This document shows, piece after piece, positions 1,571-52,962 of a stretch of DNA of 64,000 bases. The stretch is from Alphaproteobacteria bacterium (GTDB lineage Bacteria; Pseudomonadota; Alphaproteobacteria; RF32; CAG-239), in assembly GCA_015062345.1 (NCBI GenBank), contig SUUV01000003.1:15572-79571 (forward strand), given 5' to 3'. Both the position numbers and the translations under genes were made by a program. The notes under the pieces are model-generated. The model did not search any database. It was not told the origin of the DNA and was given only the letters and a program-made list of their open reading frames with translations. How positions within the stretch are numbered: the first letter of the stretch is position 1; each line of letters opens with the position of its first letter.

Positions 1571-2920
1571 TCAAAATCTTTTTTGTATACTAAACTCAAT
1601 TAACGATTTTTCATATTCTTTTTGCCATATATTTGAGCTCTTATCAGTGTAAGAATATGTTAAAGTCGGTGCAAAGCCCATAAACGAAATTTTGCGATTA
1701 GACAGTGATATAGAATATCTTTGAGTTGTATCGTGTTCTTTTACTTGTTCAAAATGATAGTCTTTAACCGTCCAGCGCTTGCCTTTATAATCGGTAAACA
1801 CAACCGATGGCTCGGCATATATATGAAAACCGTACGGCAATTCCGCACCAAAACCGAGAGCTAGATTTATTCTATTGTTTGTATATGTTTCATCTTTTGT
1901 TTTTTCATATTCATAACCCGTCTTAAATATGAAATATTTTGAAGAATCTAAAGCATAAAACAAACGCAATCTGGCGCTTTTTACATTGCCGTCCAAAATA
2001 TCCGAATAGTCATCATAATATGTCGGCGTATAGTTTAAGGTTAGGTTTGCGTTTAGCTTTTTTGTTACATCATAATTTGTTTCAAACATAAAACCGGTTG
2101 AATAGTTATAAGATTTATGGGCAAGGTATCTCTTAGATATTGTTGGTCCAAAGAAAAAATCTCCTTTGTTATGAATATATCTTGCGCCTATTGTATAGTA
2201 TAGGTATGTATCGTCATATTTTTTATCGTCATATTTTGAATTATAAACCATAAATTCGTTCTTTAAACGCCATTTATCGGTGAGCTTAAATTCATAATCC
2301 CCGCCGAAAGTGATGTTTAAGCCGACATCTTTTTTAGGTTCGTCTAAGGTATTGCAAACAATGCCAAATATTGTCATAACACATTGTTCGCCCGATGCCG
2401 TATTGTTTACATTGTTATCGGGAGCAATTCCCATATTAAACCACAAATTCCAATTTTTGTTTTTTCTGATATAATATAAAGCATATTTTATTCTGTGTTG
2501 CACCTCTTTTGGGGTGTCTTTGTGTGATAAGGCCAATCTGTAATGATATTCGGCTCGCATCCAGTCTTTTTGTTTTAGGTACAGTTCTGCCAATCTATAC
2601 CTGATATTTGCAATATCGGGTTGATAATCTAAGATAAAATGGTAAATATCTATCGCTTCTTGAGGTTTGTTTTCCAGTGTGGCAATTTGTGCTAAAAGAT
2701 ATAAACGCTCAATTTCAAGTTTTTTATCATTATACGGTTTAGCAAGCAAAGCCTTTCTTGCATCTTCAAATTTGCCCTGATTTATTAAATCGGTAGCAAA
2801 AGATAATAATTGTTTATGCGTCAAGGCAATTGCGGTTGGTTGTTCCTCAACCGCATTTAACGGCATAGCTTGGGCGGTTGTAACGCCCAAGCTAATTAAC
2901 ACAATCAGTCCATACAGCAT
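1571..2920 (-). CDS. Outer-membrane protein with N-terminal TPR repeats and a C-terminal beta-barrel, Slam/DUF560-like.
   Basis: Signal peptide MLYGLIVLISLGVTTAQA. TPR-like helices in residues ~30-170. C-terminal half is rich in alternating aromatic residues and ends in F, as beta-barrels do. It directly abuts the upstream lipoprotein gene. Confidence 0.5.
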   Translation of the reverse strand: MLYGLIVLISLGVTTAQAMPLNAVEEQPTAIALTHKQLLSFATDLINQGKFEDARKALLAKPYNDKKLEIERLYLLAQIATLENKPQEAIDIYHFILDYQPDIANIRYRLAELYLKQKDWMRAEYHYRLALSHKDTPKEVQHRIKYALYYIRKNKNWNLWFNMGIAPDNNVNNTASGEQCVMTIFGIVCNTLDEPKKDVGLNITFGGDYEFKLTDKWRLKNEFMVYNSKYDDKKYDDTYLYYTIGARYIHNKGDFFFGPTISKRYLAHKSYNYSTGFMFETNYDVTKKLNANLTLNYTPTYYDDYSDILDGNVKSARLRLFYALDSSKYFIFKTGYEYEKTKDETYTNNRINLALGFGAELPYGFHIYAEPSVVFTDYKGKRWTVKDYHFEQVKEHDTTQRYSISLSNRKISFMGFAPTLTYSYTDKSSNIWQKEYEKSLIEFSIQKRF

Positions 2921-4354
2921 TTATTTACGAACACCGCCAAATGCCATTTCTGCATCTATATAGGTGCTTGTTCCGTCGAGCTCTTCTCTGGTTTCTCCAA
3001 AACAAGCAGAACCTACAACTTCATCAGGTTTTTTCAAGTTTTCACCATAATATTTAATGTCAGCCGTTCCGTTTATTTCATCTGTAAACGCAAAATCAGC
3101 ATCTTTTGGTGTTCCTTCAAATGCAAAAGTATATTCGCCTACATTTGCAGTATCGCTGGCAATGGTAATTTTATGCCAATCCGTAAAGTCGGCCGTAAGA
3201 GTTTCTTTACCGTCTTTAAAGTTCAAATTCATAGAACCGTTAAAGATTTTTTCTTTATCTGGTTTACCAATATTTTCGACATAAACAATGGCTACTGATT
3301 TACCTTCAAAGTTCATTTCGGTATCAACTTGCGGTAAATCTTGTGCGGTAGCTTCCAACCCTTTATAACCGCCATAATATGCCATATATCCTTTTTCGTT
3401 ACCTAGGTTATAATCCACTTTTCCGAAATCGCTGTATTTTAATCCTACGGATTTTCCTAAGCTATCCATTTTAACCGATTGTGGAAGTGACTCTTTATAA
3501 AAACAATTGCCTTGTTCTTCACAAGTGTCTTCATCTAAAAACTCACCTAAATCAGCACTATCTAACCAAGCCAACACTTTTTCTTCTGTTTGAGTATCAT
3601 AACCGCCGTTTTTAACTTTGTTTTTGAATGCTTCTACAATATCTTCTTTGGTAGCATCTTTATCGACAATAATGCTATGACTTGAGTAAAAGTCTCCGTC
3701 TGCATCAGAAATTGCACAGACAAATCCATAGCTGGTATAACCTTTGGTATTTTTATAAACTCCGTTACCGGCATTGGTATATTCAATAACACCGGTCGGA
3801 GAATCGTCATGGTTAATTTTTAACCCTTTAACATTTTGATTTTCATCAACAATAAAAGCATATCCGTCATCTTCAAAAGGTCCGTAAAATTCAACATCAT
3901 TTAAAGACAAATTGCGCTCTGTTCCCAATTTTGCATATACATCTTCGGCTTTTTCTTTAATATCCAAATTTTGAATTTCCGATTTTAATTCATCTAAAGA
4001 CATATCTTTTAATTCTTCAATATCTTCCCCGACCAATGCCAACGACAACAAAATGTCTTCTTTGGTTGCTGTGGAAACATCTTCTTGTACCAAAATTTTT
4101 TCCATATTCTCATATGCTTTGTTAATGTCCTCAGCTGAAGTATCAGATGTAAGCCCAACCAAAGCGGCTGCATCTTCATATGCTGTTGTGCGTTCTTGAG
4201 TGTTATTAACCGCCTTAATGCTTGTACCGACATTCGGTAAGGTTGTATGCGGAATATGACCGTGTCCGCCGCCACCTCCGCCACCACAAGCAGTTAAAGC
4301 CGTTGTAAGCATCAATGTGGTTAAAATAGTTGAAAGTCTCATAGTTCTCTCCAT
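2921..4354 (-). CDS. Lipoprotein with a poly-Gly tether and a C-terminal beta-rich domain; candidate surface-exposed lipoprotein (TbpB/fHbp-like architecture).
   Basis: Lipobox LTAC followed by GGGGGGGHGH. C-terminus reads ...GEYTFAFEGT...AEMAFGGVRK. Adjacent to, and co-oriented with, the Slam-like gene. Confidence 0.5.
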   Translation of the reverse strand: MERTMRLSTILTTLMLTTALTACGGGGGGGHGHIPHTTLPNVGTSIKAVNNTQERTTAYEDAAALVGLTSDTSAEDINKAYENMEKILVQEDVSTATKEDILLSLALVGEDIEELKDMSLDELKSEIQNLDIKEKAEDVYAKLGTERNLSLNDVEFYGPFEDDGYAFIVDENQNVKGLKINHDDSPTGVIEYTNAGNGVYKNTKGYTSYGFVCAISDADGDFYSSHSIIVDKDATKEDIVEAFKNKVKNGGYDTQTEEKVLAWLDSADLGEFLDEDTCEEQGNCFYKESLPQSVKMDSLGKSVGLKYSDFGKVDYNLGNEKGYMAYYGGYKGLEATAQDLPQVDTEMNFEGKSVAIVYVENIGKPDKEKIFNGSMNLNFKDGKETLTADFTDWHKITIASDTANVGEYTFAFEGTPKDADFAFTDEINGTADIKYYGENLKKPDEVVGSACFGETREELDGTSTYIDAEMAFGGVRK

Positions 4355-4740
4355 TAGTTAAATATTACAAAAAATTAACCACCTTGCTAAAAGTGGTCGT
4401 AGAGTTCGTAAATCATATTGCATTAAATGACTCTTTTAGCCTTTAGGATATTAAAAAACAATACACCCTTGGACATACGCTAAAAGCTCCCCGACCGTTG
4501 AAGTCAGGGATATATTCATTGTTGGTTTTAATAAAAACCTAACAATATGACGATGCTTATTGACTAGCACCGAATGCAATAAAAAGCTTACGACAGCTCC
4601 GCACCTTTAGTAGGCGCTGAATATAAGTTTAGACTTATATCTGTTAGAGATGCTAAACACAAATAAAAAAAGTCAATAAAAAATTTACTAAAATGTAAAA
4701 AAATTATTACATTAAGGATAAAATGCGAAAAAAATGGTGC

Positions 4741-4785
4741 CGGTTAAGTGACTCGAACACTCGGGCCCTCTCATTACGAATGCGC
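4741..4785 (-). other. Partial duplicate of the 3' part of tRNA-Thr (T-arm + acceptor 3' strand + CCA) plus 15 nt of flank. Not a functional tRNA.
   Basis: A 44-nt exact direct repeat of 4978..5022 (aaatgcgaaaaaaatggtgccggttaagtgactcgaacactcg). The anticodon stem is broken and the 5' half is absent. Confidence 0.7.
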
Positions 4786-4993
4786 TTGAGGAAATAAAAA
4801 TCTTGATAAGATTTTTATGACGAAAGGTGAACTTTTGTTAGCTTTTGAGCTAGTGACAACGACGCGAAAAAAGCGTTACAAAAGGAATGACCGCAGCGAG
4901 TTAGCGAACATTTGTGAGCTTATCGAGCCAGAGCTAGCAACGCAAATTTTCAAAAAACTTTTTGAAAATTTATATTCGTAAATGCGAAAAAAA

Positions 4994-5069
<76 letters not shown>

Positions 5070-5298: not shown

Positions 5299-5763
5299 AT
5301 GAGAAAATATTTTCTTTTATCTGCTGTTGCGCTTTTAACTGCAACCACAGCAAATGCAACCACCGACTATGCTGAAGTAACAGCTAAGGCTACAATTGAG
5401 GTGGCATCAGTATTTAGTTGCAGTGATTTAAATTTTGGTAAAATTGTTGTAAAAAACGGCCATGAAGATACTTATGTTGTTCTCGGTTATGAAGTAGAGT
5501 ATGACAAGGAAAACATCATATCATTTTCAGAATATGAAATGGCAGCTTGTAATAATCTGCTTGAGGTAACAGGCAATGATAGTATTATGCTTGATCATGC
5601 AACTTTACCTGAAACCATTACTTTATCAGGACCAAACGGAAGTAAATTAACAGTATCTGATTATCAAATATTTGATTGGGACTTTGGCGGTAAATTAAAT
5701 ATACCGGCAGGTATTCAAGCTGGCGAATATACAGGTTCATTTACCGTAACTGTAACATACTAA
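5299..5763 (+). CDS. Secreted small protein, MRKYF family paralog 1 (Csu/SCPU-pilin-like).
   Basis: Signal peptide MRKYFLLSAVALLTATTANA. CSDLNFG motif. C-terminal GEYTGSFTVTVTY. Followed by terminator 5774..5803. Confidence 0.8.
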   Translation: MRKYFLLSAVALLTATTANATTDYAEVTAKATIEVASVFSCSDLNFGKIVVKNGHEDTYVVLGYEVEYDKENIISFSEYEMAACNNLLEVTGNDSIMLDHATLPETITLSGPNGSKLTVSDYQIFDWDFGGKLNIPAGIQAGEYTGSFTVTVTY

Positions 5764-5851: not shown

Positions 5852-6238
5852 CTATTTTTTCACAGATTTGATTTTTTTTAAAGATTCAATTTCCCGTTCA
5901 AGATACATAACTCTTTGACGCAACTCATTTATGGTCATACCTTGCAATTTTTCATCAAATTCAAACTTAGGTCTGCCTCGCTTATTCAGCTTAGGATATT
6001 TTTTCTGAAATTTCCATCTGACCAAACATTTAGTTGCGTATTTACCACAATTAAACCAATCGGGTATACCTGCTTCGGAGAATATTTGCTTGGCTGTTTT
6101 ACCCGACTTTTCATGCTCACGCAAAACTTTTTGCTTAAATTCTTCTGTGTATTCCACATTGCTGTTAATAACTTTTGATATATTAGAATTGCGTTCTAAT
6201 TCTCTTTTTTCTTCTGAAGTAAATATATGATGTTTCAT
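5852..6238 (-). CDS. Solo HTH plus leucine-zipper protein resembling IS3-family OrfA; no OrfB partner is present.
   Basis: HTH (SGKTAKQIFSEAGIP), an RGRP motif, and a C-terminal coiled coil ELRQRVMYLEREIESLKK. Confidence 0.4.
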   Translation of the reverse strand: MKHHIFTSEEKRELERNSNISKVINSNVEYTEEFKQKVLREHEKSGKTAKQIFSEAGIPDWFNCGKYATKCLVRWKFQKKYPKLNKRGRPKFEFDEKLQGMTINELRQRVMYLEREIESLKKIKSVKK

Positions 6239-7918: not shown

Positions 7919-10000
7919 ATGTCTGAAAAACAAAATCATGACTTAAACGAGGGAACAAGTGTTGATTCCCCTTTGATTGACTCGCTTGGCAGCGCAGTCA
8001 AAAACCTTATTGAAAAAGGAAAAGAGCAAGGTTATATCACTGTTGAAGACCTAAACCGCGCCCTACCGCCGGAAAAAGAATCTTCGGAGCAAATTGAAGA
8101 TATAATGTCAAGTATATCTGATATGGGTATCAGTATCATTTCCGAATCGGAAGCCGACAGCCTCGATTCGGAGGATAATCATGAAGAAGGCGAATATGTT
8201 GATGAAAGCGGAAACTTTGATGAGAAAGATTTAGGCCGCTCTGATGATCCTGTCAGAATGTATTTAAAAGAAATGGGGCTTGTTGAGCTTTTGTCCCGAG
8301 AAGGCGAAATTGCCATCGCAAAGCGCATTGAGGCCGGTAAAACCGTTATGATAAGCGGTTTGTGTGAAAGTCCGATGACATTAAAAGCCATTGCGCAATG
8401 GCGAGATGAGTTGCTTGAAGGAACAATGCAACTTCGTGACATTATAGACCTTGAGATGATGTATGGTGATGATACCGAAGCCATGGTTTATGATGATGAA
8501 GAAACCCAAGTTGATGATTTGGATAAGGTTACCAAAGAGCTTGCGGAAAAAAATCTTGATGAAATAGATGATGATTTAGCCACTGATATTGAGCTTGGCG
8601 ACACTGTCGATGATGAAGAAGATATGGACGATTTAGATGAAAACGAATCGGAGGAAAATTCTGAAATTGATGGTGAAGGCAACATAAAAAGTGTCGATTC
8701 ATTAGATGATGAAGGTTCAATCGGTCACAGTGCAACCTCAATCTCTACAATGGAAACCGCATTGATTGAGCCGGTATTGGAAATTTTGACTAAAATATCA
8801 AGCTATTATGATGATTTGAAAAAAATTCAAACTCAACGCATGGCGGCAATTATGTCGGGAAGAAAAGTTACTGCCAATGTTGAGAAAAAATATATTAGGG
8901 TCAAAAAGGAATTAGTTGAGTTGATGAGCTCCATTCATCTTAATTCTTCAAGAGTTGAGCAATTGGTTGAACAACTCAACGAACTTAACAAGCGTTTAAT
9001 GGGTATGGAAGGTAAGTTGTTGCGTTATGCAATGTCTTGCAAAATTAAACGCGAAGACTTTTTGGAAAGTTATCAAAAATCGGAGCTTGACCCCAATTGG
9101 CTTGATGAAATTTCACAAATTAAGGATAAATATTGGCAGATTTTTGTTGAGCGCTACGGTAAAGAGATTGCAGAGCTCAGAGACGGTATTGCTCAGATGT
9201 CGCAAGAATGCGGTTTGCCGATAACGGAATATCGCAAGATGGTTGATACAATCAAACGCGGTGAGCGAGAAGCCGAAAGAGCCAAGAAAGAAATGATTGA
9301 GGCAAACCTGCGTTTGGTTATTTCGATTGCTAAAAAATACACAAATCGCGGTATGCAGTTTTTAGACTTAATCCAAGAAGGCAATATCGGTTTGATGAAA
9401 GCCGTTGATAAGTTTGAATATAGAAGGGGTTACAAGTTTTCAACATATGCAACATGGTGGATAAGACAAGCCATAACTCGTTCAATTGCCGACCAAGCAA
9501 GAACTATCAGAATTCCGGTACATATGATTGAAACCATCAACAAACTTGTCAGAACTTCTCGTCAGATGCTTGCCGAAATGGGTAGAGAGCCTGTGCCGGA
9601 AGAATTGGCAAAAAGGTTATCAATGCCTTTGGAAAAAATCCGTAAAGTGATGAAAATTGCCAAAGAACCGGTAAGCTTGGAAGCACCTGTCGGTGATGAA
9701 GAAGATTCTTCATTGGGTGATTTTATTGCTGATGAAAGCGCATTGCAACCTCTGGACAGTGCAATTCATTCTAACTTAAAAGAAACTTGCAGCAAAATTT
9801 TATCTTCCTTAACTCCGAGAGAAGAAAGAGTTTTGCGTATGCGTTTCGGAATTGATATGAGCACTGACCATACCTTAGAAGAAGTCGGACAGCAGTTTAA
9901 TGTAACCAGAGAGCGCATTCGTCAAATTGAGGCCAAGGCTTTAAGAAAATTAAAACACCCGAGCCGTTCAAGAAGACTTCGTTCATTTTTGGATCAATAA
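7919..10000 (+). CDS. rpoD: RNA polymerase sigma-70 factor.
   Basis: Regions 1.1-4.2 are present ([31 protein letters not shown] region 4). Long acidic non-conserved spacer. Confidence 0.95.
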
Positions 10001-17285: not shown

Positions 17286-18129
17286 ATTTATAAAACCCTT
17301 AACCGGACATTCCGGTTGCGGTTTAAATTTATATAAAAAGGACGATAAACTTTTTTTAAGAAAAGATTCAGGCGATTGTTCATACAACCGGCGCTTAAAA
17401 AAACAATATATTAAGCAAAACAAATTTTTCCTAAACGGTATAAGAACTCCGAAAATTTATAATCACGGACATGAAAACGGCTTATTTTACTTTGATATGG
17501 AGTTTTTAAACGGTATAACCTTGGCAGAATATATGTCCAATATCAAAATTAAGGAAATAAACTCGCTTATAGGCTTATTGTTTAAATCTTTACCGGTTGA
17601 AAGTTCTAAAATTTTACCTGATACCGATGCTGTTTTTAAGAAAAAAATCAGGCAAATCAAAACCAAACTGCGCCCAAGTGACAGCCAAGCCTTAATTGCA
17701 GTTGATATGCTCGAAAATTTTGATTTTTCTATGGTTCCGTTTAGCTATTGTTGCGGTGATTTGACCTTAGAAAACATTATGCTTGATGATAACAAACAAA
17801 TTTATTTAATTGATTTTCTTGATTCTTTTTATAACTCTTGGATGATTGATGTGGCAAAACTTTTGCAAGACTTAGAGCTTCATTGGTCTTATAGAAATCA
17901 GGAAGTTGACTTTAATTTATCCATGCGTTTGGCAGTGGCAAAAGAAGCCTTGTTGGAAAATATTGCCGAATATGAAAATGCAAAAGAAAACATCTGCACC
18001 ATTTATCACATTTTACTGTTAAACATTTTGCGCATAATTCCTTATGCCAAAGACGATAAAACGCATTTATTTTTAAAAAATGCTTTAAATAAAATTATAC
18101 AAACCATCAAACAAACGGAGAAAAATTGA
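17272..18129 (+). CDS. Protein-kinase-like phosphotransferase (choline kinase / APH family).
   Basis: Brenner/catalytic-loop-like GDLTLENIML and IDFLDS motifs. Confidence 0.6.
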   Translation: MQNAEFIKPLTGHSGCGLNLYKKDDKLFLRKDSGDCSYNRRLKKQYIKQNKFFLNGIRTPKIYNHGHENGLFYFDMEFLNGITLAEYMSNIKIKEINSLIGLLFKSLPVESSKILPDTDAVFKKKIRQIKTKLRPSDSQALIAVDMLENFDFSMVPFSYCCGDLTLENIMLDDNKQIYLIDFLDSFYNSWMIDVAKLLQDLELHWSYRNQEVDFNLSMRLAVAKEALLENIAEYENAKENICTIYHILLLNILRIIPYAKDDKTHLFLKNALNKIIQTIKQTEKN

Positions 18130-18130
18130 T

Positions 18131-19186
18131 ATGTGTACTCTTATAATTCCCTGTGCCGGAAAATCGAGCCGTTTTCCGAATATGAAACCCAAATGGATGC
18201 TAACTCACCCTGACGGCAAACTTATGATTGAAAAATCTTTGGAAGGTATAAATTTTGATAATTTCAAACGCATCATTATCACCATTGTCAAACCGCATGA
18301 TGAAAAATATGATGCCAAACTTATTTTGGAACAAGTTTTTCGGCATAATAAAAAAATTGAAATTTGTGTTTTGGAAGATTTTACGCAAAGTGCAAGCCAG
18401 ACCATATATTTAACCATACAAAAAATGAACATTCAAGGCGCTTTTGTGATTAAAGATTCGGATAACAAGGTTTTGTTTGATATGCCTCAAAAAATAAAAA
18501 ATGCAATTGTCGGGTTTGATTTAGCCAAGCATCCGGACATTGCCAACATTCCGGCAAAAAGTTTTTTGATTGTAAATGAACAAAACATTATTCAGGACAT
18601 TATCGAAAAACAAGTTGTGTCAAAGTGCATTTGTCTTGGTGTTTATATGTTTGAAAGGGCGTTCGATTTTATACAAGCTTATGAAGAATTAAGCCAAAAA
18701 AATGTCAAAGGAGAAATGTTTGTCAGCCACATAATTTCTTATATGCTAACTTGTGGCAACACCATATTTACGGCCATTATGGCTAACTTTTTTGAAGATT
18801 GGGGCACATTATCCGAGTGGCACAAAGTTCAAAAAAAGCATCGCACATATTTTGTTGATGTTGATGGCGTCATACTTAAAAATTCGGGCAAATACGGCAT
18901 TGTAAATTGGAGCAACAATAAAACGGTTTTAGAAGAAAATATCAAAAGCTTACTTGAGTTGCAAGAAAACGGTGCTCAAATTGTGATTACCACATCAAGA
19001 ACGGAAGAATATAGGGAAGATTTGATAAATATATTGCATCAAAACAAAATTTTTCCGTATGCGATTTTAATGGGTCTAAATCATGCGGCAAGAGTTGTTA
19101 TAAACGATTTTGCTCCGACTAATCCGTATCCGTCGGGCATAGCTGTCAGTTTGCCGAGAAATACTAATATTAAAGATTATTTATAA
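18131..19186 (+). CDS. Fusion of a nucleotidyltransferase (MobA/LicC-like) and a HAD-like phosphatase domain.
   Basis: N-terminal LIIPCAGKSSRF. C-terminal FVDVDGVI (HAD motif I). Confidence 0.6.
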   Translation: MCTLIIPCAGKSSRFPNMKPKWMLTHPDGKLMIEKSLEGINFDNFKRIIITIVKPHDEKYDAKLILEQVFRHNKKIEICVLEDFTQSASQTIYLTIQKMNIQGAFVIKDSDNKVLFDMPQKIKNAIVGFDLAKHPDIANIPAKSFLIVNEQNIIQDIIEKQVVSKCICLGVYMFERAFDFIQAYEELSQKNVKGEMFVSHIISYMLTCGNTIFTAIMANFFEDWGTLSEWHKVQKKHRTYFVDVDGVILKNSGKYGIVNWSNNKTVLEENIKSLLELQENGAQIVITTSRTEEYREDLINILHQNKIFPYAILMGLNHAARVVINDFAPTNPYPSGIAVSLPRNTNIKDYL

Positions 19187-19197
19187 AGGAGAGAATT

Positions 19198-20205
19198 ATG
19201 AACATATTAATTACCGGAGGAGCCGGATTTATCGGTTCCGAGCTGGGAAAATTTTTAGTTGCGCAAGGCCACAATGTTAAAATTTTGGACAACTTGGAAT
19301 ATGGCTATAAAGACAATTTTGAAGATAACCAAACCTTAAAGAATAACTTCATATTTGCCGATATCAGAGATACCGATTTTGCAAAACACTTAAAAAACAT
19401 TGACATATTGTATCACTTTGCCGGTATATCGGCTTTGCCAGAGTGCGAATCAGAGCCTTACAAGGCCTTTGATGTTAATACCTCAGGTGTGGCAAATGTG
19501 TTAAATGCGTGCAGAAATTCTGATGTGAAAAAAATTATTTTTGCTTCAACATCTGCCGTGTATGAAAACAATTGTGCAACGGAACATCACAAAGAAACCG
19601 ACATTGTGTGTCCTAACCTTATTTATGCCACCTCAAAATATTGCGCCGAGCAAATTTGCAAATCGTATGCTCAAAATTATGATATGGACATCATCATTTG
19701 CCGATTTTTTAATGTATTCGGCCCACATCAAGACTTTAGGCGCAAATATCCGCCGTTTACAAGCTATATTATCAAAATGGCTTTAAGCAATGAAACACCT
19801 ACAATTTTTAATTGTGAAGATTGTAAACGAGATTATATCTACATTGATGATTTGTTGCAATATCTGTATCAAATGGCAACAAGCTCAAAAAAATATTCTG
19901 CCGAAATATTTAATTTGGCTACTTCAAATGCGTACAGCGCCATTGAAATTGCGCAAACGGTGTATGATATATTAAACAAAGAATTTGCCTTTAATGTTGG
20001 CGATGCCGAAAAGTTTTGGGATAAATATGACAATTTGTTTAACCAAAAATATAATTTAAGCCGGTTGAGGGTAAAACAAGAGGTTTTTAAGCATTGCTTG
20101 GGAAACGGGCAAAAAGTAGCAAAAGAATTTAATTATAGTCCTAAAACTAACTTAAAAGAAGGTTTGCGCAAAATTATTGAATATCAAAAAAATTATAAAG
20201 GGTAA
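19198..20205 (+). CDS. NAD-dependent sugar epimerase/dehydratase.
   Basis: ILITGGAGFIGSEL Rossmann motif and YxxxK. Confidence 0.8.
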   Translation: MNILITGGAGFIGSELGKFLVAQGHNVKILDNLEYGYKDNFEDNQTLKNNFIFADIRDTDFAKHLKNIDILYHFAGISALPECESEPYKAFDVNTSGVANVLNACRNSDVKKIIFASTSAVYENNCATEHHKETDIVCPNLIYATSKYCAEQICKSYAQNYDMDIIICRFFNVFGPHQDFRRKYPPFTSYIIKMALSNETPTIFNCEDCKRDYIYIDDLLQYLYQMATSSKKYSAEIFNLATSNAYSAIEIAQTVYDILNKEFAFNVGDAEKFWDKYDNLFNQKYNLSRLRVKQEVFKHCLGNGQKVAKEFNYSPKTNLKEGLRKIIEYQKNYKG

Positions 20206-20208
20206 GGC

Positions 20209-21304
20209 TATGTCAAAAATCAGTTCAAAAGATGTATCAGTTGTTGTTCAGGGTAAAAATGTGCATAAACATACAGCCAAATGCTTAAAAAGTTTGCGAG
20301 AACATTTTCCTTATGCCGAAATTATATTTTCAACTTATGATGATGAAGATGTGTTTGGCCTTGATTTTGATATCTTGGTACAATCTGCTGACCCGAATGC
20401 AACTTTATTAAGCGGTAAAATGTACAACAACATTAATCGCATATTGACCACTACCAGAGCCGGACTTGAAAAAGTCAGCCGAAAATATTGTTTGAAGATT
20501 CGCTCAGATTTGATGTTTGATAACGATAAAATTTTATCCGATATCGCTTCACAATTTCCGTTAAGAGATAAACAATACAGCATATTTAAGGAGCGAGTTT
20601 TATTTTATTGTTTATGGAGCCGAAAATTTGAATATATCGACCATAAATATTACATACAGACACCGTTTCACTTAAGCGATTGGCTTTGTTTCGGTTTAAG
20701 CGAAGATATAAAAAACTTTTTTAGCGATATTCCCTTAACCGATGAGCCTGAATATTCACACTATTTTAAAAACTCCGAAAACAGAGCACAATATATGTTT
20801 GAGCCTAATGTAACTTGGAAATTCCCGCCGGAACAATATTTTACAACCACCTTTTTCGGCCGTTTTTTTGAGCAAGCCAATATGAAATCGTTGCAAGATG
20901 TAACAGCAAAAAAAGTTGAGCTTTCAAGGAGAATTTTTGCTTCAAATGTGGTGGTTTGCGGATATAAAGAATGTGGAGCATATATTCAAAAAGATGATTA
21001 CAAATATGTATCAAAAAACATAAATTGGCTCAAAGGTGTTTGGCTTAGCGGTGTTTATCGTTATGCCGATTTTCTGTCCGATTATAAAAAATATTGCGAT
21101 GAAAATTTTGAAATTCCAAATATTTATTTATGGGCATTAAACCAGCAAATTGATAGTGATGCCGTTAAACTGAGTAAACATTATAAAACTTTTATGCAAC
21201 CGATAAGAGTGGTTCTAAAATGGTTAGAACAGTTTTTTGCTATTGTTTTTTATGCCGTAAAAATAGGTTTTGCTACAATAAAACTATATTTTGGCGGTAA
21301 ATAG
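20209..21304 (+). CDS. Hypothetical protein, WavE-like LPS biosynthesis family (tentative).
   Basis: ORF of 365 aa. Weak recollection of the WavE family only. Confidence 0.4.
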
Positions 21305-21312
21305 TGTTACAA

Positions 21313-21346
21313 AAAGAGCTTTCACAATAGTGGAAGCTCTTTTATA
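21313..21346. terminator. Bidirectional terminator.
   Basis: agagctt-N12-aagctct between convergent genes. Confidence 0.5.
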
Positions 21347-21362
21347 TAAATGTATATATTTA

Positions 21363-21860
21363 TTATTCACTTACCATGGTAAATGTAAAGGCACCTTTAT
21401 AAACACCGGTTATTAATTCAGAAGAACCGGATATATGAAGTTTGCCGGTAAGGACATTATCAAAAGCACCGCCTAATGCAATATCCGTTAAATATATACC
21501 ATAACCAGTATTATCTGTATGAGCCAGGTCAACAGAATCTGGTGCATACAATGTATAATTTTCAATATTCATATCGGCTCCGATTGAACATTCTGCAGAA
21601 GTATTTCCTATAGCAGATACAAAATATTCTGTTCCTTCAACAGCGGTAATGTTACCGAAACCGTCATCTTGTACGGTTACATCATGTGAGATGTCTGTTA
21701 GATAAATTTTACCCCAATTCCACACAGAACATGATGCTTTGGTTGCCAAAGCAAGCTCTGCCTGAACCTCAACATTGAAACCTTCTGTATAACCTGTTCC
21801 GGCATTCACATTTGTTGCAACCATCAAAGCCACCGCTGATATTAGAAAATATTTTCTCAT
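21363..21860 (-). CDS. MRKYF family paralog 3 (two-Cys subfamily).
   Basis: MRKYFLISAVALMVATNVNA...CSVWNWG...GVYKGAFTFTMVSE. Confidence 0.8.
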   Translation of the reverse strand: MRKYFLISAVALMVATNVNAGTGYTEGFNVEVQAELALATKASCSVWNWGKIYLTDISHDVTVQDDGFGNITAVEGTEYFVSAIGNTSAECSIGADMNIENYTLYAPDSVDLAHTDNTGYGIYLTDIALGGAFDNVLTGKLHISGSSELITGVYKGAFTFTMVSE

Positions 21861-51340: not shown

Positions 51341-51522
51341 TGCAAAATAAAGCGAATCTGCCCGACTCTGCAGAATCCTTATGTCAAGTAAAATAATTGC
51401 AATGTTCTAAAAATGTTCTGTTGTTTTTTATTTTTTTATGTTTAGTATACGAATCACTTTAAGAGTTATTATCGACTTTTATAAAAAACAATTTGTATCA
51501 ATTTAATAAAAGGGAAGTAGAT

Positions 51523-52962
51523 ATGGCTGAAGAAGCAATAAAAAACAATGAATTTTCTGTTCAAGACCAATGGGGACAGATATGCAGCCAATTAAAGTTG
51601 GAGTTCGGTGAAACCGCTTTTGACAGTTGGTTAAAGCCTTTGAGTGTCGGTTCATTTACCGATGGTGTGATGAACATTTGTGTACCGACCGCTTTTATGA
51701 AAAACTGGGTAATTACTCACTATTCGGATCGAATCCACAAAATTTGGGAAAACAAGAATCCCGAAATTAAAAAAGTGAACTTTGTGGTACAAACCGTACA
51801 AACACAAATCCGCTCCAATCAAGACACTTCCTTATTAAAGAAAATTGACTCCACCCCTACTCCGCAAAACTTTTATACTTCGGCATATTCCAATGTTGTA
51901 AACTTCAATGAATATGTTCGTCCCGAGGGAAGTTCTCAACTTTCGGCTCCGTTAAATCCGGCTTATACTTTCGAGTCGTTTGTGGTTGGTAAAACCAATG
52001 AGTTTGCATATGCGGCAGCCAGAAAAGTTGCCGAATCGAAAACCGTATCATTTAATCCGTTGTTTTTATATTCGGGTGTAGGTCTTGGTAAAACTCACTT
52101 AATGCATGCCATAGCTTGGCATATCAGAAAACAAGACCCGAGTCGCAATGTGATATATTTATCGGCCGAACAGTTTTTATATAAGTTTGTAAAAGCTTTG
52201 CGCTATAAAGATACCACCGCATTTAAAGAACAGTTCAGAGCTGTTGATGTGTTGATGGTTGATGATGTTCAGTTTATGAGCAACAAAGGTTCAACTCAGG
52301 AAGAATTTTTCTACACTTTCAACTCATTGATAGAAGAAGGTCGTCAGATTATAATTTCAGCCGATAAATCTCCGTCTGATTTAGAGGGAATCGAGGCTCA
52401 TTTGAAATCCCGTTTAAACAGCGGATTGGTAGCTGACATTCACCCCACTGATTTTGATTTAAGAATGGGCATTTTAAATCATAAAGCTCAGCAAATGGGC
52501 ATCGCTTTACCTGAAAAAGTTGCTGAATTTTTAGCACAAAAAATTACGACCAACATCAGAGAACTTGAGGGTTCTTTGCGTCGAATCGCCGCTCATTCTC
52601 AGTTGTTGTCAAACAAAGAAATCACCTTGGATATGACACAAGATGTGCTAAAAGATATGCTTCGTTCTTTGGATAGAAAAACCACAATTGATGAAATTCA
52701 GAAAAAAGTTGCTGAGTACTTTAACATTTCGGTTAAAGAGTTGCAGTCATCAAGGAGAGCCAGAACAGTTGCCAGACCTCGTCAGATTGCAATGTATTTA
52801 GCAAAGCAACTTACATCTCGTTCACTTCCGGAAATTGGTCGCAAGTTTGACAGAGACCACACAACGGTTATGCACGCAGTCAGAAAAGTTGAAGAACTGA
52901 TTGTTGAAGATTCATCACTGGCTGAAAATGTTGATGATTTAAGACGCGCTTTAGAAAATTAA
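51523..52962 (+). CDS. dnaA: Chromosomal replication initiator DnaA.
   Basis: AAA+ motif GVGLGKTHL and a C-terminal DnaA-box-binding domain. ATG at 51523 with an AAGGGAAG RBS. Confidence 0.95.
   Translation: MAEEAIKNNEFSVQDQWGQICSQLKLEFGETAFDSWLKPLSVGSFTDGVMNICVPTAFMKNWVITHYSDRIHKIWENKNPEIKKVNFVVQTVQTQIRSNQDTSLLKKIDSTPTPQNFYTSAYSNVVNFNEYVRPEGSSQLSAPLNPAYTFESFVVGKTNEFAYAAARKVAESKTVSFNPLFLYSGVGLGKTHLMHAIAWHIRKQDPSRNVIYLSAEQFLYKFVKALRYKDTTAFKEQFRAVDVLMVDDVQFMSNKGSTQEEFFYTFNSLIEEGRQIIISADKSPSDLEGIEAHLKSRLNSGLVADIHPTDFDLRMGILNHKAQQMGIALPEKVAEFLAQKITTNIRELEGSLRRIAAHSQLLSNKEITLDMTQDVLKDMLRSLDRKTTIDEIQKKVAEYFNISVKELQSSRRARTVARPRQIAMYLAKQLTSRSLPEIGRKFDRDHTTVMHAVRKVEELIVEDSSLAENVDDLRRALEN

Follow-up and report, generated by a model that had tools for sequence, protein, structure and literature searches.

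Slam proteins, the outer-membrane components of type 11 secretion systems (T11SSs), occur in all proteobacterial clades (PMC5449769; PMC12282271). The published signature of such a system is a Slam gene adjoining a gene for a lipobox protein with an eight-strand barrel (PMC5449769; PMC12282271), and this barrel is common to all predicted Slam-dependent lipoproteins (PMC5449769). Fusion of the barrel, as a targeting domain, to varied effectors is a described T11SS cargo architecture, and TbpB and HphA are listed as cargo of this kind (PMC12282271). A third protein, PmSLP, is termed Slam-dependent in its PDB entry. Here we analyse a window of 64,000 nucleotides (contig SUUV01000003.1) from a metagenome-assembled genome (MAG) of an alphaproteobacterium, in which two abutting genes very probably form an operon for a Slam system and its cognate surface lipoprotein, and we describe the RNA leader that precedes them.

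A sequence-only reading of the window had proposed such a pair, and both open reading frames (ORFs) exist as it described them, at 1571..2920 (449 amino acids) and 2921..4354 (477 amino acids). Because both genes lie on the minus strand, the lipoprotein gene is upstream and the Slam gene downstream. The two were said to abut, and the TAA of the lipoprotein gene indeed stands directly before the ATG of the Slam gene, with zero gap. NCBI records list the upstream product as MBE6450553.1 ('hypothetical protein') and the downstream product as MBE6450552.1 ('DUF560 domain-containing protein'), both from a MAG labelled Alphaproteobacteria bacterium. The features of the pair, all on the minus strand, are as follows.

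2921..4342, minus strand: predicted T11SS cargo lipoprotein gene, 473 amino acids from the second ATG (the ORF opens at 4354)
4256..4342, minus strand: signal peptide, lipobox LTAC (Cys codon 4286-4288) and Gly7-His-Gly-His tether, by inspection
3506..4213, minus strand: variable N-terminal putative effector region of the cargo, from the AlphaFold2 (AF2) model
2924..3505, minus strand: C-terminal handle and barrel of the cargo, a putative Slam-recognition domain, from AF2 and Foldseek
1571..2920, minus strand: gene for the Slam (type 11 secretion) outer-membrane protein, 449 amino acids, PF04575 SlipAM
2459..2818, minus strand: periplasmic helical domain of Slam resembling tetratricopeptide repeats (TPRs), residues 35-154, from Pfam TPR matches and AF2
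1574..2452, minus strand: DUF560 beta-barrel of Slam, residues 157-449, with C-terminal Phe, from Pfam and AF2

The product of the downstream gene is an outer-membrane protein of the DUF560/SlipAM family that combines a signal peptide, a TPR domain and a modelled 14-strand barrel. Its match to PF04575 (SlipAM; E=2.3e-40; 139.4 bits against a cut-off of 22) runs over residues 157-449 and covers the profile completely (positions 1-288 of 288). Generic TPR matches fall at residues 70-135, with TPR_19 at 30.3 bits (cut-off 25), and the TPR_Slam model scores 21.7 bits, under its 35.2 cut-off. The N-terminus, MLYGLIVLISLGVTTAQA, is a hydrophobic signal-like segment ending in AQA, and the C-terminus is QKRF. 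An AF2 model made with 38 homologues in the alignment (predicted local distance difference test, pLDDT, 89.9; predicted template modelling score, pTM, 0.80) has seven helices at residues 35-154, then 14 long strands between 157 and 447, with an extra small Cys-containing hairpin at 178-191. In the PDB, the nearest folds belong to two TPR-plus-barrel secretins, BcsC and PelBC, and to the 14-stranded outer-membrane barrels FadL, OmpG and CymA. No solved Slam structure is among the PDB entries searched, and the 14-strand barrel described here is a prediction.

Gene callers differ on where this protein begins (window 2903-2920), some choosing the GTG at codon 7 (443 amino acids) and others the ATG directly after the cargo stop (449 amino acids). 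The alignment of homologues favours the 449-amino-acid form. A match of the barrel to a porin or autotransporter family, the outcome that would have spoken against the sequence-only reading, is ruled out by the full-length SlipAM match, the N-terminal TPR helices and the modelled barrel. The proposed order of signal peptide, TPR repeats and barrel ending in Phe is thus borne out.

The product of the upstream gene carries a lipobox, a flexible Gly tether and an N-terminal region specific to its family, and its C-terminal part is modelled as a handle and eight-strand barrel of the TbpB/NHBA/PmSLP fold. The 477-amino-acid ORF begins M-E-R-T-M-R-L-S-T-I-L-T-T-L-M-L-T-T-A-L-T-A-C, continues with G7-H-G-H and ends AEMAFGGVRK. 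The LTAC lipobox, judged by inspection, occupies residues 20-23, with its Cys next to GGGGGGGHGH. These are the lipobox, linker and terminus that the sequence-only reading had pointed out, and only its start codon needs revision. The true start is probably the second ATG, at 4342 (MRLST...), because this codon lies 6-7 nucleotides after GGAGAG, matches a 473-amino-acid database protein and is where homologues start.

The cargo family comprises 35 members, all from metagenomes and MAGs, 30 of which keep a lipobox with a Gly/Ser-rich tether behind it. Two members, P0026 and P0029 (alignment A1, columns 1-200), have no lipobox; an N-terminal extension of about 150 residues, with a signal peptide and a region of seemingly ankyrin-like composition by eye, precedes their Gly-rich tether. 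These two may be cargo variants that are not lipidated or are anchored in another way. The family alignment has a highly conserved C-terminal third, with the blocks DLPQVDTEMNFEGK..., FKDGKETL.ADFTDWHK, DIKYYGENPKNPDE and AEMVFGG.RK, and the handle and barrel together form its most conserved part.

An AF2 model of the cargo on this family alignment (pLDDT 84.7; pTM 0.81) is disordered over residues 1-38 and contains a five-helix bundle at 48-145, a beta sheet at 154-231, a helical insert at 236-281, a four-strand handle at 284-330 and exactly eight strands at 346-476. The N-terminal region (48-283) is modelled with pLDDT mostly 80-97, and has no sequence match in Pfam, NCBIfam or the PDB. When the model was compared with the PDB by Foldseek (E<=1e-3), eight matches were returned, all of them chains of TbpB (C-lobe or full-length), the NHBA C-terminal domain, PmSLP or HphA. 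The best is the TbpB C-lobe 5kkx (E=2.8e-6), and NHBA 6cuj, PmSLP 9b3e and HphA 8glo are also among them. Given eight strands and matches confined to these four proteins, the cargo agrees at the level of fold with the published signature. Structure prediction of the cargo therefore sustains the proposed resemblance of the C-terminal domain to a TbpB-type handle and barrel. The proposed search with hidden Markov models is upheld for the Slam partner, and its cargo half, which named TbpB_B_D and Lipoprotein_5, finds neither signature in any of the 35 family members.

A search with the cargo profile among 1.84 billion representatives yields 369 clusters at 50% identity. About 50 of these are full-length, and more than 100 match the C-terminal ~190 residues alone (profile positions ~300-495), which would fit a targeting domain common to varied effectors.

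The association of the two genes is kept beyond this window. In all 11 distinct related loci compared, a gene for a lipobox protein lies immediately upstream of the SlipAM gene, and the genes flanking the pair differ from locus to locus. Because all of these loci share the cargo-Slam order, the adjacency is not due to chance, and the expectation that it would serve as a genomic signature holds. Across the related loci, identity to the window is 70-90% for Slam and 24-91% for the cargo, which drops to 24-53% even as Slam stays in this range, and the two values are not tied to each other: L003 has a Slam that is 81% identical and a cargo that is 29% identical, and in L001 the corresponding values are 70% and 48%. 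As judged from sequence comparison, the rapid divergence of the N-terminal domain of the cargo beside a stable Slam suggests selection at the cell surface. The identity values follow the pattern that would be expected of a conserved translocon with diversifying or exchanged surface-exposed cargo. The identifiable relatives all come from animal-gut MAGs (deer caecum, deer rectum and human gut).

Several related loci carry additional genes beside the pair. L008 (71-4775) has one Slam gene preceded in tandem by two divergent genes for cargo lipoproteins (571 and 522 amino acids), a layout that suggests a single translocon serving several cargos. Large autotransporter genes adjoin the pair in three relatives (L009 1196-4246, L010 947-4270 and L017 3174-5537), which hints that surface-protein genes are clustered. 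A sister clade, with cargo about 44-48% identical, has a 200-amino-acid serine recombinase (Resolvase and HTH_7 domains) adjoining the pair (L001 7135-7737, L005 7128-7730, L015 3650-4318 and L011 7533-8025). Its gene is divergent and upstream in three loci, and convergent and downstream in one. Between recombinase and cargo gene in this clade stands a conserved palindrome, AAAAAGTGG...CCACTTTTT, and the arrangement could be the sign of a mobile cassette or of a DNA switch. An invertible (phase-variable) promoter was sought beside the resolvase in the sister loci, and the palindrome alone was found, with no convincing flanking inverted repeats.

Ahead of the cargo gene lies a stretch of DNA that is conserved more strictly than the cargo. 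Within the roughly 300 nucleotides that separate an att-like repeat from the start codon, blocks recur unchanged (100% identity) in both L016 and L007, although the L007 cargo is only 28% identical. We find that this region specifies a leader of about 230-250 nucleotides, ending with a terminator hairpin and U-run about 20-30 nucleotides before the ribosome-binding site. Two features are assigned to it.

4371..4642, minus strand: structured 5' leader RNA with a 5' hairpin, long closing stem, multi-helix junction and terminator
4377..4398, minus strand: intrinsic-terminator-like hairpin GACCACUUUUAGCAAGGUGGUU followed by a U-run, from a terminator scan; the putative expression platform of the leader

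The leader is, in all likelihood, a real, conserved and structured cis-acting RNA that is absent from Rfam 15. A consensus was derived with RNAalifold from 48-50 non-redundant copies, and covariation statistics were computed on 48. The consensus fold consists of a 5' hairpin, a long stem closing the 5' and 3' portions, a second stem, the hairpins P3, P5 and P6, and the terminator, with P4 and P6a variable, and includes invariant junction nucleotides. Because the copies were gathered by way of one exact 20-mer, the invariance of that block is by construction. Pairing is preserved in 97.6% of cells in the 48 copies, compared with 86.8% in shuffled alignments and 36-48% when the partner strand is slid. 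Changes on both sides of a pair occur in 333 cells, distributed over 23 pairs, versus 104 in shuffles (0 of 500 reach the observed value), and the covariation score is 0.372 versus 0.164 shuffled (0 of 500) and at most 0.076 slid. Six central pairs of the second stem use all four Watson-Crick types. The terminator stem covaries as well, as evident from columns 270-287 (AU30 GC9 GU9) and 272-285 (CG39 UA7). When the leader from the window is folded alone, its minimum free energy structure reproduces the consensus (-80.5 kcal/mol; z = -6.0).

An alternative pairing of GGUCGGGGAG with CUCUCCGACC would overlap P5, the closing stem and the terminator; it is pairable in 97.7% of cases, with no compensatory changes, and is partly fixed by the way that copies were collected. 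The hairpin GUCAU/AUGAU was considered as a pseudoknot partner and rejected, as it lacks covariation and clashes with the covarying closing stem. A known riboswitch was likewise rejected: none of the 4227 families of Rfam 15 is matched, whether by 8 kb of sequence at E<=1, by the 361-nucleotide leader at E<=10 or by six other copies. The conserved 17-18-mers of the leader have no match in the full texts searched or in the first 200 of the 408 supplementary files of Fremin & Bhatt 2021.

The leader is widespread. Exact matches to its invariant 20-mer number 95 in the metagenome collection, with one more among viral contigs (loci L018-L113); many of the contigs are named human gut metagenome, and several bear two copies. 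The window holds a single copy, according to an nhmmer profile search. The viral-classified match lies at 1953-1972 of L113, a 43.7 kb IMG/VR contig that may be a prophage of the same lineage. An ATG-started ORF begins 118-286 nucleotides past the core motif, on the sense strand, in 93 of 100 leader copies. The products encoded downstream include autotransporters, bundlin-like type IV pilins, small lipoproteins, MORN and ankyrin proteins and Slam cargo, together with glycosyltransferases, a secreted nuclease and a DNA methyltransferase. By a crude heuristic, an export signal is present in 43 of 64 distinct leader-downstream proteins, compared with 202 of 673 background ORFs. A tie between the leader and the edges of tRNA genes or islands was considered and rejected, since a tRNA lies within 1.5 kb of only 9 of 99 copies.

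The other side of the leader is marked by a tRNA gene and a partial copy of it.

4994..5069, minus strand: tRNA-Thr (anticodon CGU; ARAGORN; Rfam tRNA, 69.6 bits), the upstream boundary of the locus
4721..4784, minus strand: partial copy of the tRNA-Thr 3' half plus 14 nucleotides downstream, an att-like direct repeat, from repeat analysis

The repeat consists of an exact 43-nucleotide direct repeat (4721-4763 and 4980-5022) with an adjacent 19-nucleotide repeat. The whole window holds two copies, where none is expected by chance. The spacing of the repeats is 259 bp, and an insert of about 210 nucleotides separates the tRNA from its partial copy. L016, with a cargo 91% identical, has tRNA-Thr first, followed by leader, cargo and Slam and, last, by a 52-nucleotide copy of the tRNA 3' half (partial copy at 7992-8049), and this arrangement is the classical footprint of tRNA integration. 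The partial copy in the window is closer to this post-Slam copy of L016 than to the functional tRNA.

At the DNA level, the module is 89.6% identical between L016 and the window, and the left flank is 79.7% identical. That flank corresponds to window positions 17486-21313. The comparison of L016 1-4604 with window 17486-21367 takes in lipopolysaccharide (LPS), epimerase and WavE genes, about 80% identical, which adjoin tRNA-Thr and the module in L016 and lie 13 kb off in the window. Because the left flank of L016 matches a distant segment of the window, the module occupies a different chromosomal place in the two genomes. That the module is more alike than its flank suggests, from these identities, that it has been relocated or transferred. 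The pair acts like a mobile module of two genes linked to tRNA-Thr, and because no integrase is present this mobility is a historical inference.

The window is chromosomal, with a GC content of ~33%, and carries dnaA, groEL, rpoD and gltX. Because dnaA lies within it (51493-52962), no more than ~50 kb separate the locus from what is probably the chromosomal replication origin. The neighbours of the pair are the tRNA-Thr, a DUF4402 protein, an IS3 orfA and an AMMECR1 protein. The DUF4402 gene (5299-5763, plus strand) encodes a small secreted protein with a signal peptide and is divergent from the tRNA; its place beside the pair is not kept in relatives. An IS3-family orfA-like helix-turn-helix protein of 128 amino acids (5852-6238, minus strand), without a transposase orfB, is probably an insertion-sequence remnant. 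No TonB-dependent receptor is found among the neighbouring ORFs of the pair or the ten scanned window ORFs, and none turned up in the related loci. Because no such receptor stands beside the pair or in the ten scanned ORFs, and no iron context was found, a bipartite nutrient receptor of the TbpA/TbpB type was dropped from consideration.

Several observations weigh against reading the pair as a Slam and its displayed cargo on a mobile module. We infer surface exposure and Slam dependence of the cargo by analogy with the described systems. Pfam signatures TbpB_B_D (PF01298), Lipoprotein_5 and Lipoprot_C/GNA1870-related are unmatched in all 35 family members at E<=10, and in 10 distant proteins that share the C-terminal domain alone at E<=0.1. 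More broadly, searches of Pfam, NCBIfam and the PDB with a single cargo sequence (phmmer) and with a profile gave no meaningful match, and the PDB profile search of the family returned no surface-lipoprotein chain. An hhalign comparison of the family with an fHbp sequence entered by hand gave a probability of 3%, so no sequence link can be claimed. The Foldseek TM-scores are modest (0.2-0.56), because the C-terminal part alone aligns. The signal peptide of Slam is without a basic n-region, and the gene callers split on its start. No integrase adjoins the att-like repeats in the window or in L016, and in the window no tRNA repeat follows the Slam gene, the repeat being placed between tRNA and module.

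These points leave room for other explanations of the pair. The lipoprotein might be a periplasm-facing accessory subunit or plug of a DUF560 barrel that exports something else: adjacency alone cannot separate partner from cargo, TPR domains often bind partner proteins, and TbpB_B_D is not matched. We consider this very unlikely, as the C-terminal 190 residues match the folds of TbpB, NHBA, PmSLP and HphA specifically, and a long Gly tether with a fast-evolving N-terminal region is typical of exposed proteins. Moreover, one Slam gene stands behind two tandem cargo genes in L008, and the more than 100 clusters in which other N-termini share the C-terminal domain fit a targeting module, not a fixed subunit. 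Slam might instead export the cargo, which is then shed or cleaved in the manner of soluble T11SS haemophores. T11SSs also secrete the unlipidated soluble proteins HphA, Hpl and HrpC (PMC12282271), HphA is among the fold matches, and P0026 and P0029 have a different N-terminal extension in place of the lipobox. Yet a canonical lipobox with its Cys is kept in 30 of the 35 relatives, and neither a haem- or metal-binding signature nor a gene for TonB or a TonB-dependent receptor was found near the pair or in the scanned ORFs, making release from the cell improbable. Decay of an old genomic island into a non-functional remnant could account for the missing integrase, the nearby orfA-only IS3 fragment (5852-6238) and the partial tRNA duplication. 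This explanation is scarcely credible given two intact, full-length ORFs, a Slam that shares 70-90% identity with more than 100 relatives, conserved cargo motifs and leader, and the recurrence of the same protein sequences on several independent contigs. A Slam with its cognate surface lipoprotein is therefore the reading that we retain.

For the leader, the choice is less clear. We would read it, from its sequence and predicted fold, as a terminator-coupled cis-regulatory RNA. One tentative proposal, which we hold to be rather less probable than its negation, is that it represents the first example of an undescribed class of ligand-sensing, terminator-coupled aptamers that responds to a small molecule or second messenger and co-regulates much of the surface and accessory proteome of uncultured gut Alphaproteobacteria, from Slam cargo and autotransporters to type IV pilins, lipoproteins and glycosyltransferases. 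In favour of an aptamer, an element of ~230 nucleotides with a covarying closing stem abutting a terminator and an invariant junction has the classic layout of aptamer plus expression platform, and the candidate alternative pairing of GGUCGGGGAG and CUCUCCGACC overlaps the terminator. Approaching an even chance is the explanation that no small molecule is sensed, and that the leader is a protein or RNA antiterminator site, a processive-antitermination signal or a mobile promoter-leader cassette. The functions encoded downstream are mixed (autotransporters, pilins, lipoproteins, glycosyltransferases, methyltransferase and nucleases), the element is multi-copy, no ligand can be deduced, and the regulon is more like those of specialised antiterminators than that of a metabolic riboswitch.

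If the pair operates by the established Slam pathway (PMC5449769, PMC9090332, PMC8406197), transcription would enter through the leader, and because the leader ends in an intrinsic terminator, expression would most likely be gated by attenuation. The cargo precursor would be exported by Sec and acylated at Cys23 (Hooda 2016/2017; Huynh 2022, PMC9090332), and would pass through the periplasm in unfolded form, escorted by Lol or Skp. Slam would then recognise the C-terminal barrel domain and thread the cargo through or alongside its own barrel, leaving the protein lipid-anchored on the outer leaflet by way of the Gly tether, its variable N-terminal domain turned towards the gut environment. This helical and beta region may be a ligand-binding effector under diversifying pressure. 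Since no TonB-dependent receptor was found nearby, the domain probably binds a host- or environment-derived ligand unaided.

The locus would extend Slam/T11SS surface-lipoprotein display to uncultured low-GC Alphaproteobacteria of the gut and rumen. An entire cargo family, with its 369 clusters, is invisible to the Pfam domains used for T11SS cargo counts, so that the censuses published to date are probably incomplete. The pairing of a conserved translocon with swappable, fast-diverging cargo on a mobile module singles out these lipoproteins as likely host- or phage-facing surface determinants of a poorly known gut lineage. The leader RNA of this operon, previously uncatalogued, is common to many exported-protein genes. 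If it proves to be a sensor, it would constitute a new class of regulatory RNA with a ready regulon for a signal that controls surface remodelling.

In its architecture, the leader resembles terminator-type riboswitches and leader attenuators, such as the c-di-GMP-I/GEMM RNAs found before pilin and adhesin genes. It shares with them a 5' untranslated location, a covarying multi-helix fold, a 5'-3' closing stem followed by an intrinsic terminator, and many downstream genes for surface proteins. It differs in that it matches none of the 4227 Rfam families and has a mixed regulon.

Among protein systems, Slam1/TbpB and Slam2/HpuA of Neisseria meningitidis (Hooda 2016; PMC5449769; PMC9090332) share with this pair a DUF560 barrel with N-terminal TPRs and a cargo with a lipobox, a Gly-rich tether and a C-terminal handle and eight-strand barrel, for which the TbpB C-lobe is the best fold match. 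The Slam2 and HpuA genes are also adjacent. However, we find neither a TonB-dependent receptor partner nor an iron-uptake context here, and the host is an uncultured low-GC gut alphaproteobacterium. The cargo has a single lobe joined to an unrelated helical N-terminal region, whereas TbpB has two lobes, and its barrel is not recognised by Pfam TbpB_B_D. PmSLP of Pasteurella multocida, with its adjacent Slam (PMC10075479, PMC12080921; PDB 9b3e, 9b3h), is likewise a stand-alone protein without a receptor partner, consists of one handle-and-barrel unit and matches the cargo in fold. In contrast to the cargo, which has 473 amino acids and an extra N-terminal region of ~240 residues, PmSLP has ~210 residues and binds complement factor I, and the two have no detectable sequence similarity.

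NilB/NilC of Xenorhabdus nematophila and other T11SS cargo systems (PMC8406197, PMC9100927, PMC12282271) also combine an outer-membrane protein with a two-domain surface lipoprotein, in which a variable N-terminal effector is joined to a conserved C-terminal barrel. Systems of this type are used for host colonisation, and an association with mobile islands is reported for T11SS cluster 1. The published T11SS cargo sets were gathered by means of the TbpBBD and lipoprotein C Pfam domains, unlike the family described here, in which these domains are undetected. On balance, the cargo is closer to the stand-alone lipoproteins PmSLP, fHbp and NilC than to a bipartite receptor. The pair is an ordinary further example of the known Slam system, and what it adds is a cargo family that escapes Pfam and a leader RNA that has not been catalogued.

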